Assembly: GCA_016839705.1 (NCBI GenBank)
Contig: JAEOTR010000068.1
Span: forward strand, 1 to 15,750
Length of the DNA: 15,750 nucleotides
Reading direction: 5' to 3'
Origin: Promethearchaeota archaeon
GTDB taxonomy: Archaea; Asgardarchaeota; Lokiarchaeia; Sigyniarchaeales; SOKP01
Part shown: piece after piece, positions 6,512 to 12,885 of the stretch
Numbering within the stretch: the first letter of the stretch is position 1
Layout: each line of letters starts with the position of its first letter
Made by a program: the position numbers and the translations under genes
Notes under the pieces: generated by a model
Database searches by the model: none
Told to the model about the DNA's origin: nothing
What the model saw: the letters and a program-made list of their open reading frames with translations, nothing else

Positions 6512-9310
6512 TTGAAAATATGTATGTCTAAAGCGATCATCCAAAAAGCCTTTCAAGAAAAGTATACCACTAAAAATAAATTAGAGAAAAGCTGGCAGGA
6601 CTTCTTAAATAGAGACACTTATTTAACAATTGATGAAAAACGCAAATTTTTTAGTGAAATAAACCAATTGGCAAAATTTCCTCGACTTATTAAATTTAAA
6701 TTTAAAGCAAGAAGGGTGTTTAGAAAATTTAGGAAGGTTTTACACACCTTGATTGAAGAAATTAATACCTATAATGATTATTTTATTGAAAATCGTTTAA
6801 AAAATTGCCAATCCTTCTTAAATGGAAAGGATGATGGATTAAAGTATCCCTTAGATGAAGAACAAAAATTGGCTGTAATTAAGGATGATAAACATAACCT
6901 TGTAATTGCCGGGGCCGGTTCAGGGAAAACAAGTGTAATTTCTTCTAGAATGGCTTATTTGATTAGACGAAAGGATAAAGTTGATCAAGATAAAATATTA
7001 GCATTAGCATTCACTAAGGTAGCTGCTGATGAGATGAAGGAAAGGTTAAAAAAAAACTATGGTATTGAAATTGATATCTCAACGTTTCATGCTTTAGGAA
7101 GGAGCATCATAGAAGAGGAACTAGATCATAAACCTAAACTTATATTTAATGGTAATGAAAAAGAGATATACGAACTCATTGAAAAATTATTTATGGATGC
7201 CCTTAAGGAAGTTAAATATCAAAACATTCTTATAGAATATTTAGCATATCATTCAGAGCAAGAAGTTAAACCTGAATCATTTGAAAATAAAGTGGAATAT
7301 TATGAATATATGAGAAATAAAAACTATTCAACTCTTAATGATATTTCTGTGAAATCAATTTCTGAAAGGGATATTGGAAACTTTCTATTCTTGCATAATA
7401 TCAAATTCGAGTATGAACCATTGGTAGAATGGGTGGATGAGAGTGAAGAGGATAAAGAATACCATCCTGATTTTTATCTTCCTGAATATGATGTCTATAT
7501 TGAGCATTGGGGATTGAATAAGAGTAATCAAGTTCCAGAGTGGTTTACGAAAACTTCTGAAGAATATCTACAGTTAAGAAATTGGAAATTAGAACAATTT
7601 GAAACTCATAATAAAACCATTGTAGAAACATGGGATTATGAGCGTTTATCTGAGGAACTAATTCCAAATTTAAAGGAAAAGCTAAAGAAAGTAATTCCTA
7701 AATTAGAATTTATTCCATTAACTTATAGTGAGCTAGTTGAAAAAACATTTGAGTTTAAAGAGAAACGAAATGAGGTTGTCAAGCTAGTTGGAAACTTTAT
7801 AAAAATATCAAAATGTAATTTTTATACGGTGTCAGATATAACTGAGAGAATAAAAGCAAAAAAATATTCTAAAAAACAGAAATTATTCGGAGAATTGGCT
7901 CTTGAAGTGTATAGGAGATATCAAGATTACTTGAATACGGAAAATCGGATAGATTTCAATGATATGATTAACCTTGCCGTTGAATTAACAAAAAAAGAAC
8001 CAGAAAAGTATATTAGTAGATATGATCATGTTCTTGTCGATGAATTCCAAGATATTTCTTATCAGAGATTAGAATTGATCAAGTGTTTTGTTAATGATAA
8101 ATCAAATACGAAATTATTCTGTGTGGGTGATGATTGGCAAAGTATCTATCAATTTACAGGTAGCGACGTACGATTTTTTGTCAACTTTAAAGATTATTTT
8201 CCGAATCCTGAAATCACTTATCTAAGCAATAATTATCGAAGTAGTAAAACTATTGTAGGCATATCAAATAAGTTAATAGCCAATAATAAGAAACAAATTA
8301 TCAAAGAAACCCGTTCCACTCACGATATTGGAATGCAACCTATGTTTATTGATTTTACTTCAGGATTTAATTATAATCCTAAAATTCAATATGAAAATAT
8401 CTACAATCTTATCCAAATCCTATTAGATGATGGAGTTGAACCTCATGAGATTATGGTTTTATCACGGTTTAATAAATACTTAAGAGATTTGGAAATCTTT
8501 TGTGGTGCCAGAGGAGTTCCAACAGAATCAGAACATGGTGGAGTACGATTTTATAGCGCTCATAAATCAAAGGGCTCTGAAAGTCAGCATGTAATTCTAA
8601 CGGATATGACCTCTGGACTATACGGATTTCCATGCGAAATTCAAGATTCATCAGTAATGGAATTAGCGAAAAGATTTGAATCTGATGGCTTTATAGATGA
8701 AGAACGACGGCTTTTTTATGTATCTTTGACTCGAAGTAAGAAATTTCTCTATATTTACAGCATGGAACAGAGCAACTCTATGTTTCTAAATGAGATTAAT
8801 CCATATTTATTGAGATTACGATTAGATACCACAAATAGATGGGATGAAGGATTATCTGATTATATGAAGTCTTTTATTAAGGGAATTTTACCCGATATAC
8901 CAATATCCTGCCCTAACTGCGATAGCTTTTTAGTTAAAAGAACTGGAAAGAAAGGGAATTTCCTCGGATGTAGTCGCTACCCTAAATGTAATTATACTCA
9001 AGATTTAGAAAATCTATCTGAGAGATATGAAGATAAAAAAATCTTTACTATTGACTCTCTTCCAAGATTCTGTGAACAATGCGGAAAACCTTTAGCAATC
9101 CGGAAAGGCCCTTATGGAGGGTTTTTAGGATGTACAAGATATCCAAATTGTAAATTTACTTTCAATCTTAGTGATGATAAGCCAATTATTTGCCCAAGCT
9201 GTGGAAGCCCTCTTGTCGTAAGAAAAGGACAGTATGGAGCTTTTTTAGGATGTACGAACTATCCGAGATGTAAATTTTTGTTAGATAGCAAGAAATTCAG
9301 AAGAGGTTAA
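6512..9310 (+). CDS. SF1A DNA helicase (helicase IV/UvrD-like) with inserted PD-(D/E)xK-type nuclease-like domain and three C-terminal topoisomerase-type C4 zinc ribbons
   Basis: Q motif LDEEQ, Walker A AGAGSGKT (~6908-6931), Ia LAFT, STFH, Walker B VDEFQD, III VGDDWQSIYQF, IV NYRS, V HKSKGSE, VI EERRLFYVSLTRSK. Insert KSISE..IGNFL..FEYE..YHPDFYL..YIEHWG (~7350-7513). CxxC..GC..YPxC repeats start at 8909, 9071 and 9191. The true start may be ATG 6524. Confidence 0.92.
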   Translation: MKICMSKAIIQKAFQEKYTTKNKLEKSWQDFLNRDTYLTIDEKRKFFSEINQLAKFPRLIKFKFKARRVFRKFRKVLHTLIEEINTYNDYFIENRLKNCQSFLNGKDDGLKYPLDEEQKLAVIKDDKHNLVIAGAGSGKTSVISSRMAYLIRRKDKVDQDKILALAFTKVAADEMKERLKKNYGIEIDISTFHALGRSIIEEELDHKPKLIFNGNEKEIYELIEKLFMDALKEVKYQNILIEYLAYHSEQEVKPESFENKVEYYEYMRNKNYSTLNDISVKSISERDIGNFLFLHNIKFEYEPLVEWVDESEEDKEYHPDFYLPEYDVYIEHWGLNKSNQVPEWFTKTSEEYLQLRNWKLEQFETHNKTIVETWDYERLSEELIPNLKEKLKKVIPKLEFIPLTYSELVEKTFEFKEKRNEVVKLVGNFIKISKCNFYTVSDITERIKAKKYSKKQKLFGELALEVYRRYQDYLNTENRIDFNDMINLAVELTKKEPEKYISRYDHVLVDEFQDISYQRLELIKCFVNDKSNTKLFCVGDDWQSIYQFTGSDVRFFVNFKDYFPNPEITYLSNNYRSSKTIVGISNKLIANNKKQIIKETRSTHDIGMQPMFIDFTSGFNYNPKIQYENIYNLIQILLDDGVEPHEIMVLSRFNKYLRDLEIFCGARGVPTESEHGGVRFYSAHKSKGSESQHVILTDMTSGLYGFPCEIQDSSVMELAKRFESDGFIDEERRLFYVSLTRSKKFLYIYSMEQSNSMFLNEINPYLLRLRLDTTNRWDEGLSDYMKSFIKGILPDIPISCPNCDSFLVKRTGKKGNFLGCSRYPKCNYTQDLENLSERYEDKKIFTIDSLPRFCEQCGKPLAIRKGPYGGFLGCTRYPNCKFTFNLSDDKPIICPSCGSPLVVRKGQYGAFLGCTNYPRCKFLLDSKKFRRG

Positions 9311-9318
9311 AATGAATT

Positions 9319-9975
9319 ATGGCTGAAATCCCAAAGTTTTGCCCGAGATGCGGTAAACCATTAGAGATGAGAAAAGGAACTTATGGGACTTATCTAGATT
9401 GTACAGATTACCCCAAATGTAAATATACATATGATTTTTCTAGTAAAAATGTAGCTAAGACAACACAAAATGGCACAAACACACCTTCCTCGTGCCCAAA
9501 ATGCGGAAAAAAATTAGCATTATATATTGGAAAATACGGGATATTTCTTGGGTGTAATGGTTATCCCAAATGTAATTACTCACTAAACTTCGAGGATCCC
9601 TATAATATTACCTGTCCAAAATGCGGGAAAATCATGATAGAACGGACTGGAACTTATGGGATGTTCTATGGGTGTAAAGGGTATCCCAAATGTAAATTTA
9701 CCTTCGATCTAAGGGTAAAAGGAAAAACTAAGGAAAAAAAACCTGTAAAAAAGTTAGTTTTACCAGAGGGATACGGTTTTAAAGTTACGGGGGATGATAT
9801 ACTAGGTGCTCTGACTTGTGAGGGGCAAAATTTGCGTGGACTTGTAACTAAATTAGAACTAACTAATGAAGTAGATATTAATTACCTTAAACTCAAATTA
9901 AAGGAATTCGAACATAAAGGCTTTATAATCAAAAATTTTAATGATAACGAAACAATTTGGGAGAAAGTTAAATAA
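9319..9975 (+). CDS. Topoisomerase-type C4 zinc-ribbon repeat protein (3 repeats) with putative C-terminal winged-helix domain
   Basis: Three CPxCGxx..GxYG..C..YPKCxY/F repeats and a Lys-rich linker. The C-terminus ILGAL..NLRGLVTKL..YLKLKLKEFEHKGFI..NETIW is wHTH-like. It starts 8 nt after the helicase stop, with GAGGT at 9303-9307. Confidence 0.85.
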   Translation: MAEIPKFCPRCGKPLEMRKGTYGTYLDCTDYPKCKYTYDFSSKNVAKTTQNGTNTPSSCPKCGKKLALYIGKYGIFLGCNGYPKCNYSLNFEDPYNITCPKCGKIMIERTGTYGMFYGCKGYPKCKFTFDLRVKGKTKEKKPVKKLVLPEGYGFKVTGDDILGALTCEGQNLRGLVTKLELTNEVDINYLKLKLKEFEHKGFIIKNFNDNETIWEKVK

Positions 9976-10014
9976 ATTTCAAGTTAAGTTATATTTATAT
10001 TATATTTTTTAAAG

Positions 10015-10719
10015 GTGGTATATAGGTTATATATTATGAAATCAAATGATAATGATTTAAACATTCCAAAAACATGCCCTAAATGTGGTAGTGAATTAGA
10101 AGAACGTGAAGGGAAATATGGAAAATTCTTGGGATGCACTAATTTTCCAGAATGTCGTTATACGTTTGATTTGAGTGGTGATAATATCAGTCTTAAATGC
10201 CCTGATTGCGGTAAAAGTTTACGATTCCGAGATAGTCAATATGGAAGGTTTTTAAGCTGCAGTGGTTTTCCCGATTGTAAATTTGCGTTTAATCCAGAAT
10301 TTAAAGATCATCCTGATATCTTTTGCCCAAAATGTAATAAGACTTTAGAATTAGAGACCATTGAAGATAAAAAATATCTAACTTGTAAAGGAAAGCCCCA
10401 ATGTGATTTCAAGCTTGAATGGGTTGATTCCAAGCAGAAAATTACCAAAAGAGGTTATTATCCTAAATGTCCTGATTGCAGTAGTGAATTAGCGAAGCGT
10501 AGTGGTAAATTTGGGTCATTCCTAGGATGTGTTAGCTATCCAAATTGCAGATTTACGTTCGATCCCGAAAGAGAGAATCAAAGAGTTTTAAAGTGTCCTG
10601 AATGTGGAAAAGAGTTAGATATAAGGCTAGGAAAATATGGTAAATTTGTAGGATGTTCAGGATATCCTGAATGCAGATATATCTTTGATCTTAGGAGTTC
10701 GGAACCAAAACTAGATTGA
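10015..10719 (+). CDS. Topoisomerase-type C4 zinc-ribbon repeat protein (5 repeats; YrdD-like architecture)
   Basis: Five CPxC..C..[FY/K]PxC repeats, the third divergent (CPKCNKTLELETIEDKKYLTCKGKPQC). No catalytic domain. The start may be ATG 10036. Confidence 0.88.
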   Translation: MVYRLYIMKSNDNDLNIPKTCPKCGSELEEREGKYGKFLGCTNFPECRYTFDLSGDNISLKCPDCGKSLRFRDSQYGRFLSCSGFPDCKFAFNPEFKDHPDIFCPKCNKTLELETIEDKKYLTCKGKPQCDFKLEWVDSKQKITKRGYYPKCPDCSSELAKRSGKFGSFLGCVSYPNCRFTFDPERENQRVLKCPECGKELDIRLGKYGKFVGCSGYPECRYIFDLRSSEPKLD

Positions 10720-10735
10720 TTTAAGTTTAAAAGAA

Positions 10736-10787
10736 TTTGGATTATATCCAAAAATCATTTTTTGGATACCCTTTTTCTATTTATAAA
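10736..10787. promoter_or_regulatory. Overlapping inverted repeats (candidate operator or terminator hairpin) followed by a TATA-like box
   Basis: TTTGGAT-tat-ATCCAAA (10736-10752) overlaps the perfect TATCCAAAAA-tcat-TTTTTGGATA (10745-10768). TTTATAAA lies at 10780-10787, ~20 nt before ATG 10808. Confidence 0.5.
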
Positions 10788-10807
10788 TAATGATAATGTT
10801 ATGATTC

Positions 10808-11104
10808 ATGAAAGAAATGATAACTACTCAAATAAGTATTAAAAGAAAACTGCTGTTAAAACAATATTTGAACGGTCAACTTGCGGTATATGTTAATGAT
10901 ATTAATAGTGAGCCAATAGCTGAACTTTCTATCATGCATAATTCTATAGATCTTGCTCCAAATGAATTTATTTTGAAAGATTATTCTGAGAATGAATATT
11001 TGGTGCAACAATGCTATGAATCAAACTTATTTACACCAACAGATAGATTTGTTTTAATCGGCTCACATCTCTGTCCTATATGTCAGATTAAGTCGGAAGT
11101 TTGA
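10808..11104 (+). CDS. Small hypothetical protein, DUF4313-like
   Basis: Pattern YxNGxxAV..EPIAxLS..L..NEFILKDYSENE..TDRFV.IG..CPIC resembles my recollection of DUF4313-type mobile-element proteins. The 3' end overlaps the convergent gene by 22 nt. Confidence 0.6.
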   Translation: MKEMITTQISIKRKLLLKQYLNGQLAVYVNDINSEPIAELSIMHNSIDLAPNEFILKDYSENEYLVQQCYESNLFTPTDRFVLIGSHLCPICQIKSEV

Positions 11105-12885
11105 AACTGCTGTAACGTTTTCACGAAATCTGTTGACTCGTTTGCACTTAAAATAAGCTTCTTCTTAGTACGAGTCATACCTACATAGAGTAACTGACGA
11201 TCTTGATCAGATTTATAGGTGTTGACTTCGGGGATTATGATGGTGTCCGCTTCTAATCCTTTTGTTCCGTGAAGGGTACCGATCAATAATCCTGGTGTTT
11301 TATAATCATAATCCATCAAATCTTTCCAATTTATATGTAATTGTCTTAAATAATCAAAAAAGGGATGTTCATATTTCCTTTTCGCCATGTTATATTTGAA
11401 TAGTACTAAGATTTCTTGAGGAGACTTCAAAAGGTTATTAATTTTATCAGCAAGCTTTCTGTACTCCTCATCTCGAGTTCTTGATAGAATAAACTCAAAT
11501 AATCCGTGTGTTCCTATGAATTCTTCTGTTGCTAGAAATTCATCAAATTTTCCAATTAATTCTTTTATAGCTTGAGGTAACGTTTCTTGAGCTATATATC
11601 CTATTTCAATGGGAGTACGATATGATTTCTGGAATCTTCTCACCCTACCCCTCGCTTGGATTCCAACATTCGACCAAAAAAATCTTTTTCGATCATATAT
11701 TCCTTGAAGACCGTCACAAGTAATCAATAAGGAATTAGATTTTGAATTTAAGACTTGCATGATGGATTTAAACCAACCTTCCTCAAAATCTTGGGCCTCA
11801 TCAATAAGGATGGCATCATAAGTTATCTTATCATCACCGAGAGCCGTTAACATTTCTAATAATAATCCGGGTACTTTTTTATTGAAAAATTCATCGAACC
11901 CATTTTCCCGTCTGGCTTTATTTTCTGCTTCCAGATACAATCTTGAATACTCATTATCGGGACTCAGAATATAACTTCTGGCCCATGCATGAAAATTATT
12001 AATTGTTACATCAGCATCGTAATCTTGCGGGTTCAATAAGTGGAAAAGTAACATTTTCAATCTTTTATTATAACATAATACGAGAATTCTCCAATTTGGA
12101 TGCCGGAGAGCTAATATTCTTGCACGGGCAATTAAAAGGACCGTTTTTCCACTTCCAGCAACCCCAAATATCAGTCTATGGCCCTCCCCCATTACCCTTG
12201 CTAAGCTTTCTTGCTCTTCGTCTAAGAGTTTAATCCTATCCTCGATTGAGAAATATTCAAGTAAGTCAGTCTGTTTTAAATCAGGTAATCGACAGGTCGG
12301 GATAATATTTGCTCTTAGCACCTTAAACTGTTCTTCAGAGAGATAAGCATTTACTGGTATAATGCCAATCATAAATTCCTCAAAATTGTCATTTCTCTTC
12401 AACGTTTCTTTAAAGCTTACGTGAATTTTACTCGGTAAAAGTGCTCGGATCCCTCCAGCGGCATAACTACTCTCTGAAATTTGGCTAAATGCTACTAATC
12501 GGGTTATAGGAATATACACATCCTCAGGAAAGTGACAATATCCTATTCGATCTTTAATAGCACGCCAATATTGATACAGTTGATCAAATGGATTATCTAA
12601 TAATATTGGCTTCTCATCTTTTAATCTTTCCCATTTACCCGTTTTTGGTGTAGTCTTTAAATACCTTTCGGAGTAATCCTTGACTTCTACGATTAGAATC
12701 CCGTGTTGTGGTGAGAGAATAACAAAATCTGGATGTAAATCTCCAATATACGGCTCGAAATAAGCAATTATATGATTTTGCTTATCAAAAAAGTTGACAA
12801 TTCGGTTATAGACCATCCGCTCCCCATCGGTCGTCGTTGAAGGTGGTTTGCTCAGGAAATTTACCATATATTCAAGTAAAAGCAA
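11083..12885 (-). CDS. NERD nuclease domain fused to SF1 (UvrD-like) helicase/ATPase
   Basis: N-terminal GE..EP..HPDFVILSPQHGILIVEVKD..NPFDQ (NERD, PD-(D/E)xK). Walker A GVAGSGKT, LCYN, Walker B IDEAQD, DGLQGIY, SYRT, TLHGTKGLEAD, LLYVGMTRTK. Likely start ATG 12867. Confidence 0.92.
   Translation of the reverse strand: MLLLEYMVNFLSKPPSTTTDGERMVYNRIVNFFDKQNHIIAYFEPYIGDLHPDFVILSPQHGILIVEVKDYSERYLKTTPKTGKWERLKDEKPILLDNPFDQLYQYWRAIKDRIGYCHFPEDVYIPITRLVAFSQISESSYAAGGIRALLPSKIHVSFKETLKRNDNFEEFMIGIIPVNAYLSEEQFKVLRANIIPTCRLPDLKQTDLLEYFSIEDRIKLLDEEQESLARVMGEGHRLIFGVAGSGKTVLLIARARILALRHPNWRILVLCYNKRLKMLLFHLLNPQDYDADVTINNFHAWARSYILSPDNEYSRLYLEAENKARRENGFDEFFNKKVPGLLLEMLTALGDDKITYDAILIDEAQDFEEGWFKSIMQVLNSKSNSLLITCDGLQGIYDRKRFFWSNVGIQARGRVRRFQKSYRTPIEIGYIAQETLPQAIKELIGKFDEFLATEEFIGTHGLFEFILSRTRDEEYRKLADKINNLLKSPQEILVLFKYNMAKRKYEHPFFDYLRQLHINWKDLMDYDYKTPGLLIGTLHGTKGLEADTIIIPEVNTYKSDQDRQLLYVGMTRTKKKLILSANESTDFVKTLQQFQTSDLI

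Follow-up and report, generated by a model that had tools for sequence, protein, structure and literature searches.

A conserved pair of a putative DUF4313-related protein and a NERD-UvrD nuclease-helicase in a probable mosaic of accessory genes in a Lokiarchaeial genome

The window analyzed here is a whole contig of 15,750 bases from a metagenome-assembled Lokiarchaeial (Promethearchaeota) genome. Its region at 6512–12885 is filled by five open reading frames (ORFs), called genes A to E below, in which two predicted nuclease-helicases, A and E, point toward each other and enclose two zinc-ribbon genes (B and C) and a small gene (D). The original prediction, made from the sequence, read the five genes as a single system for defense or DNA processing. 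Our analysis indicates that the region is probably not one system but a mosaic: accessory modules, each inherited independently, lie side by side in a part of the Lokiarchaeial chromosome that is variable and resembles a defense island. Within it, the convergent D–E pair is the only strictly conserved unit of the five genes. It forms one module, and proteins like its E have already been listed as anti-phage candidates. The other would be gene A, a self-contained motor with a Vsr-like endonuclease and zinc ribbons, which is sometimes followed by free-standing ribbon genes such as B and C.

A search for the genes in 154 genomes of the order found A next to E in the window only, and the arrangement A-B-C-D-E is unique to it among these genomes. 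Orthologues of A occur in approximately 20 of the 154, and several of these are fragments with stops or remnants flanked by insertion sequences or toxin-antitoxin genes. E is found in 41 genomes at E-value ≤1e-10, approximately 30 of these sequences being full length, and there are in addition short N-terminal relics. A is followed by ribbon genes in two other genomes (G055 and G132) and as a remnant in a third (G108); eight further genomes (G051, G125, G111, G033, G153, G065, G076 and G122) have A without adjacent ribbon genes. The closest relative that carries both nuclease-helicases is G076, where A is 84% and E 88% identical to the genes of the window. Its gene order is NosD-like, C, D, E, and its A lies on another contig, without B. 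The original prediction held that it would fall if the genes were not conserved together, and as a set of five they are not. The genes are also not uniform housekeeping genes, as had been anticipated, since both A and E are patchy and often decayed.

The association of D with E has a different character. A D homologue is convergent to E in 18 of the 20 E loci inspected, and D is present in every one of the 23 genomes of the window's family (f1) that have a full-length E. According to the coordinates, 17 of 18 orthologous pairs have overlapping 3′ ends, with an overlap of 4–45 nt (22 nt for the pair in the window); in the remaining pair the genes are approximately 400 nt apart, and a second D copy is present. 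The flanks of the pair vary, and no other gene family is common to more than four of the 18 loci. Among divergent orthologues of E, that of G006 (40% identity), the most distant for which a candidate partner was seen, is accompanied by a weak D-like ORF only, and one at 44% identity has no D. A scan across the phylum with a D profile found D in this order only, in 34 of 400 genomes. The pair is thus patchy, decays, and travels as a unit.

Gene E matches the NERD domain, PF08378, with an E-value of 1.2e-9 (39 bits, cut-off 22.1), and the helicase domains UvrD_C (2.4e-11, 44 bits) and UvrD-helicase (30.7 bits). The NERD triad, D53, E67 and K69, and the motor motifs GSGKT and DEAQD are invariant in 21 orthologues. 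On these matches E is a predicted NERD PD-(D/E)xK nuclease joined to a UvrD/Rep helicase of superfamily 1A (SF1A). It also matches, end to end, the PADLOC profile PDLC01087 ('C3a187', 'NERD+UvrD'), with an E-value of 2.4e-75 and with residues 15–594 aligned to positions 12–556 of 559. Full-length homologues at 27–30% identity are found in Acinetobacter, Bacillaceae, Planctomycetes, cyanobacteria and others. In the bacterial NERD-UvrD loci, a D-like ORF within 3 kb was found in 0 of 54, and there was no other common neighbor either. Because D is kept with the Lokiarchaeial E and is absent from these bacterial loci, it appears to be a lineage-specific addition to an old single-gene nuclease-helicase. 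We note that a 75-kb contig labeled as Patescibacteria group bacterium (JANBVM010000001.1, locus L128) carries an E of Lokiarchaeial type (58% identity) with a convergent D; it is probably a mis-binned or mislabeled archaeal contig.

The Lokiarchaeial D sequences are well conserved in alignment, with a KDYSEN motif and a C-terminal CPxC. The AlphaFold2 model of D, with a predicted local distance difference test score (pLDDT) of 82, consists of strands and one helix, and its comparison with solved structures gave no assignable fold (best E-value 0.1 with Foldseek, best Z 3.0 in the wide VIA search). A direct Pfam search returned no match, and 20 Lokiarchaeial D sequences had no match to PF14190 (DUF4313) even at E-value ≤10. 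The relationship to DUF4313 is a transitive one: a profile search of 1.84 billion cluster representatives found 1144 relatives of D, PF14190 is matched by 13 of 58 sampled relatives (best 1.9e-7), and DUF4313 is carried by 29 of the 30 ESM-Atlas clusters nearest to D, which are mostly viral. We therefore describe D as a putative superfamily-level relative of DUF4313; the DUF4313-like label originally given to it stands at that level, and not as a direct Pfam membership.

The wider family of D appears to be characteristic of mobile elements, namely phages and conjugative plasmids, and of their early or accessory regions. In BFVD, D matched only uncharacterized phage proteins (E-value 2e-4), and in PHROGs the best match (1.1e-3) was to an unnamed family. 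A tblastn search with one bacterial relative of D (P0060) found 26 phage records (actinophages and huge phages) as well as 31 plasmids, of which 23 are conjugative. The match on a Vibrio MOBH plasmid lies among small genes upstream of bet/exo, and a homologue on a Cupriavidus plasmid is annotated as DUF4313. No mention of DUF4313 was found in a literature search. The genera g19 and g20 (L106–L111) have distant D homologues of approximately 100 residues (E-values of approximately 1e-10 to 1e-12) that are solitary, with no E; in several of these loci the neighbors are an FGGY-kinase-like gene on one side and, on the other, a gene that looks RuBisCO-like by eye only.

A working model for the pair can be outlined. 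E would load on DNA ends or single-stranded DNA (ssDNA) of invading or damaged DNA and unwind it with ATP, while the NERD domain would cut. It may in this way act like other nuclease-helicase immune proteins (Nhi-like, Gabija GajB, Hachiman), by analogy and not by membership. D is probably a regulator of E, specific to this lineage. Its most likely role would be that of a brake or inhibitor relieved on infection, which is the most plausible choice because D has small proteins of phages and plasmids as relatives; in addition, expression of the two genes would be coupled through their overlapping 3′ ends. A more specific proposal is that D is a domesticated phage or plasmid inhibitor of DUF4313 type that gates E, the two forming an Asgard-specific immune (or toxin-antitoxin-like) module in which an infection would set E free through the loss or titration of D. 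We put this forward tentatively and think it rather unlikely to hold in full. If true, it would provide the first function for the large DUF4313 superfamily, and would imply that phages and conjugative plasmids carry nuclease-helicase inhibitors as anti-defense genes. An alignment-based prediction of a complex between E and D gave a score of 0.00, which weighs neither for nor against binding.

Gene A matches PF00580 (UvrD-helicase) with an E-value of 1.9e-52 (179 bits). The Walker A motif GSGKT and the motif DEFQD can be read in its translation, and the helicase-motif residues G, K, D, E, Q and D reach ≥90% conservation in alignments of the A family. The profile match together with the Walker A and DExQ-type motifs places A in the UvrD/Rep SF1A helicases. 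It also matches the DNA helicase IV equivalog NF008276 (5.3e-88, 296 bits, under the cut-off of 543); the other top NCBIfam relatives are PcrA, Rep and UvrD, and all equivalog scores lie far under their cut-offs. By these scores A is a predicted relative of DNA helicase IV and not an equivalog.

Between the first helicase motifs and the remainder of the helicase, A contains an insert of approximately 230 residues. Neither the insert nor the N-terminus of A had a match in the direct Pfam search, and phmmer against PDB sequences gave chance-level matches only for the insert. The AlphaFold2 model of the insert was built from an alignment of 36 homologues and has a pLDDT of 89. Structure comparison with VIA matched it to the catalytic domain of I-Bth0305I (3r3p, Z 10.9, root-mean-square deviation 2.5 over 97 residues), to Vsr (1cw0, Z 9.1) and to the DUF559 protein NGO0050 (3hrl, Z 8.3), with TnsA, Bax1 and VRR-NUC lower in the list; Foldseek gives the same set with weak E-values. 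Residues S282, E285, D320 and E331 are invariant in the 36 insert sequences, and the motif (PDF, approximately 10 residues, IEhxG) resembles that of Vsr/DUF559. As modeled, the insert is a Vsr/DUF559-like PD-(D/E)xK nuclease fold, and the fold and its invariant residues bear out an earlier guess that A contains a nuclease.

The C-terminus of A carries three zinc ribbons of the topoisomerase I (Top1) C4 type (PF01396, 1.4e-39, 134 bits, cut-off 32), which coincide with NCBIfam topoisomerase stretches at residues 797–832, 854–886 and 893–924. A would therefore be self-sufficient as a predicted enzyme, with a motor, a Vsr-like nickase and ssDNA-binding ribbons in one chain. Approximately 120 database proteins carry the insert of A, and many also have PF01396 ribbons; they come from Asgard and DPANN archaea and some bacteria, and are annotated as 'DNA helicase IV' or 'UvrD-helicase domain-containing protein'. 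The family is thus already annotated as helicase IV-like, and the inserted nuclease is absent from its Pfam matches and database annotations. Relatives of approximately 1,060–1,240 residues have leucine-rich repeats (P0192, P0217, P0221, P0222, P0224, P0227, P0228, P0234 and P0237), and others have tetratricopeptide repeat (TPR) or RQC domains (P0263, P0268–P0270). These fusions look like sensor-like additions to the helicase-Vsr core.

The ribbons of B and C are of the same type as those of A. PF01396 identifies three units in B (2.8e-35, 120 bits) and five in C (1.6e-58, 195 bits), against the same cut-off, giving 3+3+5 = 11 ribbons over the three genes; at the DNA level the array appears as 8 copies of a 78-nt unit with ≥60% identity. 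The repeat module proposed to be shared by A, B and C is thus real. The description of B and C as ribbon-only genes holds for C and not for B, which has an extra C-terminal domain of approximately 80 residues; this part has no Pfam match, and an Atlas search with it gave a best value of 0.80, a lead only. Ribbon-only genes are common in genomes of the order that lack both A and E, in unrelated contexts, and C-like genes have a conserved, housekeeping-like synteny in one genus. B and C appear to be generic DNA-binding proteins of these archaea.

Several other arrangements of ribbon genes were seen. B-like genes (three ribbons and the C-terminal domain) directly adjoin a HerA (DUF87)-NurA pair in three genomes (L199:4259–8015, L200 and L203). 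In two genomes (L192:4241–4936 and L198:3460–4179), ribbon-array genes adjoin a gene for a PLD-like nuclease that has a double zinc ribbon as its fusion partner. In G112, the ribbon gene beside E encodes three Top1-type ribbons fused to a TFIIB cyclin repeat (PF00382, 5e-16; L068:7133–8182).

In the related genomes, these genes recur beside other modules. A patchy pair of genes, present in approximately 20 of the 154 genomes, encodes an AAA_16 ATPase (approximately 824 residues) and a SAP-domain protein (approximately 184 residues); examples are found at L064:4055–7101, L067, L068:10492–13575, L198:180–3239 and L201:2274–5333. In at least eight genomes this pair neighbors genes considered here: E–D in G052, G098 and G112, E relics in G047 and G001, an A fragment in G011, and ribbon genes in G055 and G109. 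It may be an uncharacterized STAND-like module of the same variable region. In G111 and G125, the genes flanking the A orthologue are a toxin-antitoxin pair, MNT (Polbeta)-HepT, and a short Smr-like ORF (L041:7777–8437 and L040:6001–7021); this ORF is also found in G112, where it directly adjoins a remnant of A that ends after approximately 125 residues (L068:16432–17124). RNase H genes and a PLD nuclease also recur with A, D–E or ribbon genes in relatives. The changing combinations of modules are the signature of a variable accessory or defense-island-like region. The idea of an island therefore survives in part, in the recurrence of conflict-type modules in relatives, as several independent modules and not as a single system.

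The features of the region are listed in Table 1. The ORFs, their strands and the short gaps of 8 nt (A–B) and 39 nt (B–C) agree with the original prediction, as does the presence of two convergent fusions of a nuclease domain to an SF1 helicase. The B–C gap takes C to start at the GTG at 10015, and would be 57 nt if C started at the ATG at 10033. The database call for gene A is 928 residues long, which would fit the ATG at 6524, and comparison with orthologues suggests that E probably starts at the ATG at 12867.

Table 1. Coordinates in the window of the five genes and of the features within them
Feature	Position	Strand	Description	Evidence
Gene A	6512–9310	+	Helicase IV/UvrD-type SF1A helicase, 932 residues from TTG	PF00580, NF008276, Walker A and DEFQD in translation
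Vsr/DUF559-like PD-(D/E)xK fold (predicted) inserted in the A helicase	7322–7708	+	Residues ~271–399	AlphaFold2 model and structure comparison
Three Top1-type C4 zinc ribbons	8900–9292	+	C-terminus of A	PF01396; NCBIfam topoisomerase stretches
Gene B	9319–9975	+	Three zinc ribbons and C-terminal domain of ~80 residues	PF01396
Gene C	10015–10719	+	Five zinc ribbons only	PF01396
Gene D	10808–11104	+	98 residues, putative divergent DUF4313-superfamily member	Alignment, AlphaFold2, transitive DUF4313 link
Gene E	11083–12885	-	Predicted NERD nuclease and UvrD-type helicase, 600 residues from TTG	PF08378, UvrD_C, PADLOC PDLC01087
NERD domain of E	12484–12828	-	Residues 20–134	PF08378
Overlap of D and E 3′ ends	11083–11104	.	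22 nt	Gene coordinates

The arrangement was also checked for misassembly. Per-run contigs of the source study span the 3′ end of A, B, C and the start of D (9235–10928) and also C, D and E (10372–11960), with zero mismatches. It follows that the juxtaposition of A to E is real in this organism, with no obvious assembly chimera, and an artifact of this kind was rejected. Other source-run contigs diverge from the window within D and E (at 10993 and at 11595–11741) with many substitutions, and the variant sequence continuing past 10993 matches a D allele of the G052 type. A second, related strain that has its own D–E pair appears to be present in the marine sediment samples of the source study. 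The window was also searched for signs of an integrated element, and neither a tRNA nor flanking terminal repeats were found.

A role in defense or DNA processing, as originally suggested, is favored by the nuclease-helicases themselves, by their patchy occurrence, by the match of E to a PADLOC candidate and by the conflict-type neighbors in relatives; what does not stand is that the genes form one system. Several observations weigh against reading the region as a mosaic of defense-like modules. The ribbon genes adjoin A or D–E in approximately seven loci, which is above chance adjacency, so some functional tie is possible. The PADLOC NERD+UvrD profile represents a candidate and not a validated system. 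The window has no recognised defense system beside the genes, the flanks consisting of a GTPase-kinase, a NosD-like gene, a hydrolase, membrane proteins, a BAR protein and a DinB protein. In three genomes A lies downstream of the GTPase-kinase gene in the same chromosomal neighborhood, and this looks like vertical inheritance with loss and not like mobility. Finally, the genomes are related to each other and the counts are not independent samples, and neighbors can be lost together in single deletions, so that the co-retention of D and E overstates their functional coupling.

The shared neighborhood of A would also suit housekeeping or stress-related DNA repair, in which A and E would be repair or replication-restart helicase-nucleases (helicase IV-like or AddA-like), B and C would be YrdD-like proteins that bind ssDNA, and patchiness would reflect redundancy with other repair pathways and not viral conflict. 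Helicase IV, PcrA, Rep and UvrD, the top relatives of A in NCBIfam, point the same way, as do the B-like genes beside the HerA-NurA end-resection genes, the synteny of the C-like genes and the DinB-family gene nearby in the window. However, A falls far short of every equivalog cut-off, and most genomes of the order, including this one, have a separate UvrD-like paralogue of approximately 715 residues. A and E are each absent from approximately 75–85% of related genomes and often decayed. The leucine-rich repeat fusions of A relatives, the toxin-antitoxin and STAND-like neighbors, and the PADLOC match of E likewise argue against repair, which we consider doubtful as an overall explanation.

Less probable again is that D and E are merely neighbors in a frozen synteny, with D having a separate function, for example as a domesticated phage gene acting elsewhere. 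Their convergent orientation means that they do not form an operon, the distant D homologues of other genera stand alone between metabolic genes, a few genomes have extra solitary D copies, and the two most distant E orthologues have no clear D. Against this, the co-occurrence in 23 of 23 genomes extends over approximately 10 genera with changing flanks, and the stop regions overlap in nearly every pair. Close D-type genes were not found in genomes without E, the only others being extra D copies in genomes with E and the distant homologues in two genera of family f3.

One integrated five-gene system, in which D would be an accessory subunit of a complex of the nuclease-helicases and ribbon proteins that detects ssDNA or replication intermediates, is very unlikely: the close packing of A, B and C, the location of D on their strand, the shared ribbon module, and the ribbon genes beside A (G055, G132 and G108) or beside D–E (G076, G052 and G112) are all in its favor, but A and E are adjacent in none of the other genomes, C-D-E occurs without A and B in G076, most A orthologues and most D–E pairs have no ribbon gene nearby, ribbon genes are widespread in genomes without A and E, and A has ribbons of its own.

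Among prokaryotes, Asgard archaea are the nearest relatives of eukaryotes, and what is known of their immune repertoire still comes mostly from prediction. Reading the region as a mosaic of modules removes the supposed five-gene system as a false lead and puts in its place two concrete units that can be tested. One, specific to Lokiarchaeia, pairs a NERD-UvrD nuclease-helicase tail to tail with a small protein of a mostly viral and plasmid family; the other is a motor of helicase IV type with a predicted built-in Vsr-like nuclease, the relatives of which are sometimes fused to leucine-rich repeats. If D controls E, a candidate defense protein and the DUF4313 family would both be explained; if not, the region would be an ordinary mosaic of accessory DNA-processing genes.

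Several known systems and families resemble these genes. Free-standing ribbon proteins are exemplified by E. coli YrdD, which binds ssDNA. The ribbons of B and C are of the same Top1-type C4 kind (PF01396) as those of YrdD and of the C-terminus of topoisomerase I, but occur as three (B) and five (C) in tandem, with an extra domain in B. DNA helicase IV (HelD) of E. coli and the Asgard 'DNA helicase IV' family are the best NCBIfam relatives of A, which differs in having a Vsr-like nuclease within the motor and three C-terminal zinc ribbons. The closest defense analogue of A is Hhe, which was reportedly described by Gao et al. in 2020 as a helicase and Vsr-endonuclease defense protein of E. coli. 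Both combine a helicase with a Vsr-type endonuclease, an acidic residue of which is needed for defense in Hhe (10.1101/2022.06.16.496414). Hhe is more than 1700 residues long, the mutated site being E1731 (10.1101/2022.06.16.496414), whereas A has 932 residues with the predicted nuclease inserted within a UvrD-type motor. The PADLOC matches listed (25 of 46) included no profile for Hhe.

Nhi, the Nhi-like systems and Gabija GajB resemble A and E in combining a nuclease domain with an SF1 helicase in antiviral proteins, and NERD is listed for 'Nhi-like' systems (PMC10952713). Neither assignment was made. The UvrD cores of both A and E match GajB profiles, but there is no GajA-type OLD/TOPRIM ATPase gene among the ORFs of the window, and Gabija was rejected. 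Nhi was rejected on a marginal match (6e-5) to one motif, at residues 354–397 only. What the comparison with PADLOC that the original prediction had proposed does support is the candidate single-gene anti-phage protein PDLC01087, the architecture of which E shares over its whole length. At the other end of the pair, D differs from Pfam DUF4313 in that its relatives match PF14190 and the Lokiarchaeial D sequences themselves do not. The Lokiarchaeial branch differs from the PDLC01087 kind in its obligate convergent DUF4313-like partner, absent in the 54 bacterial loci. What is new here is therefore a lineage-specific two-gene variant, DUF4313-like plus NERD-UvrD, of a known candidate kind.

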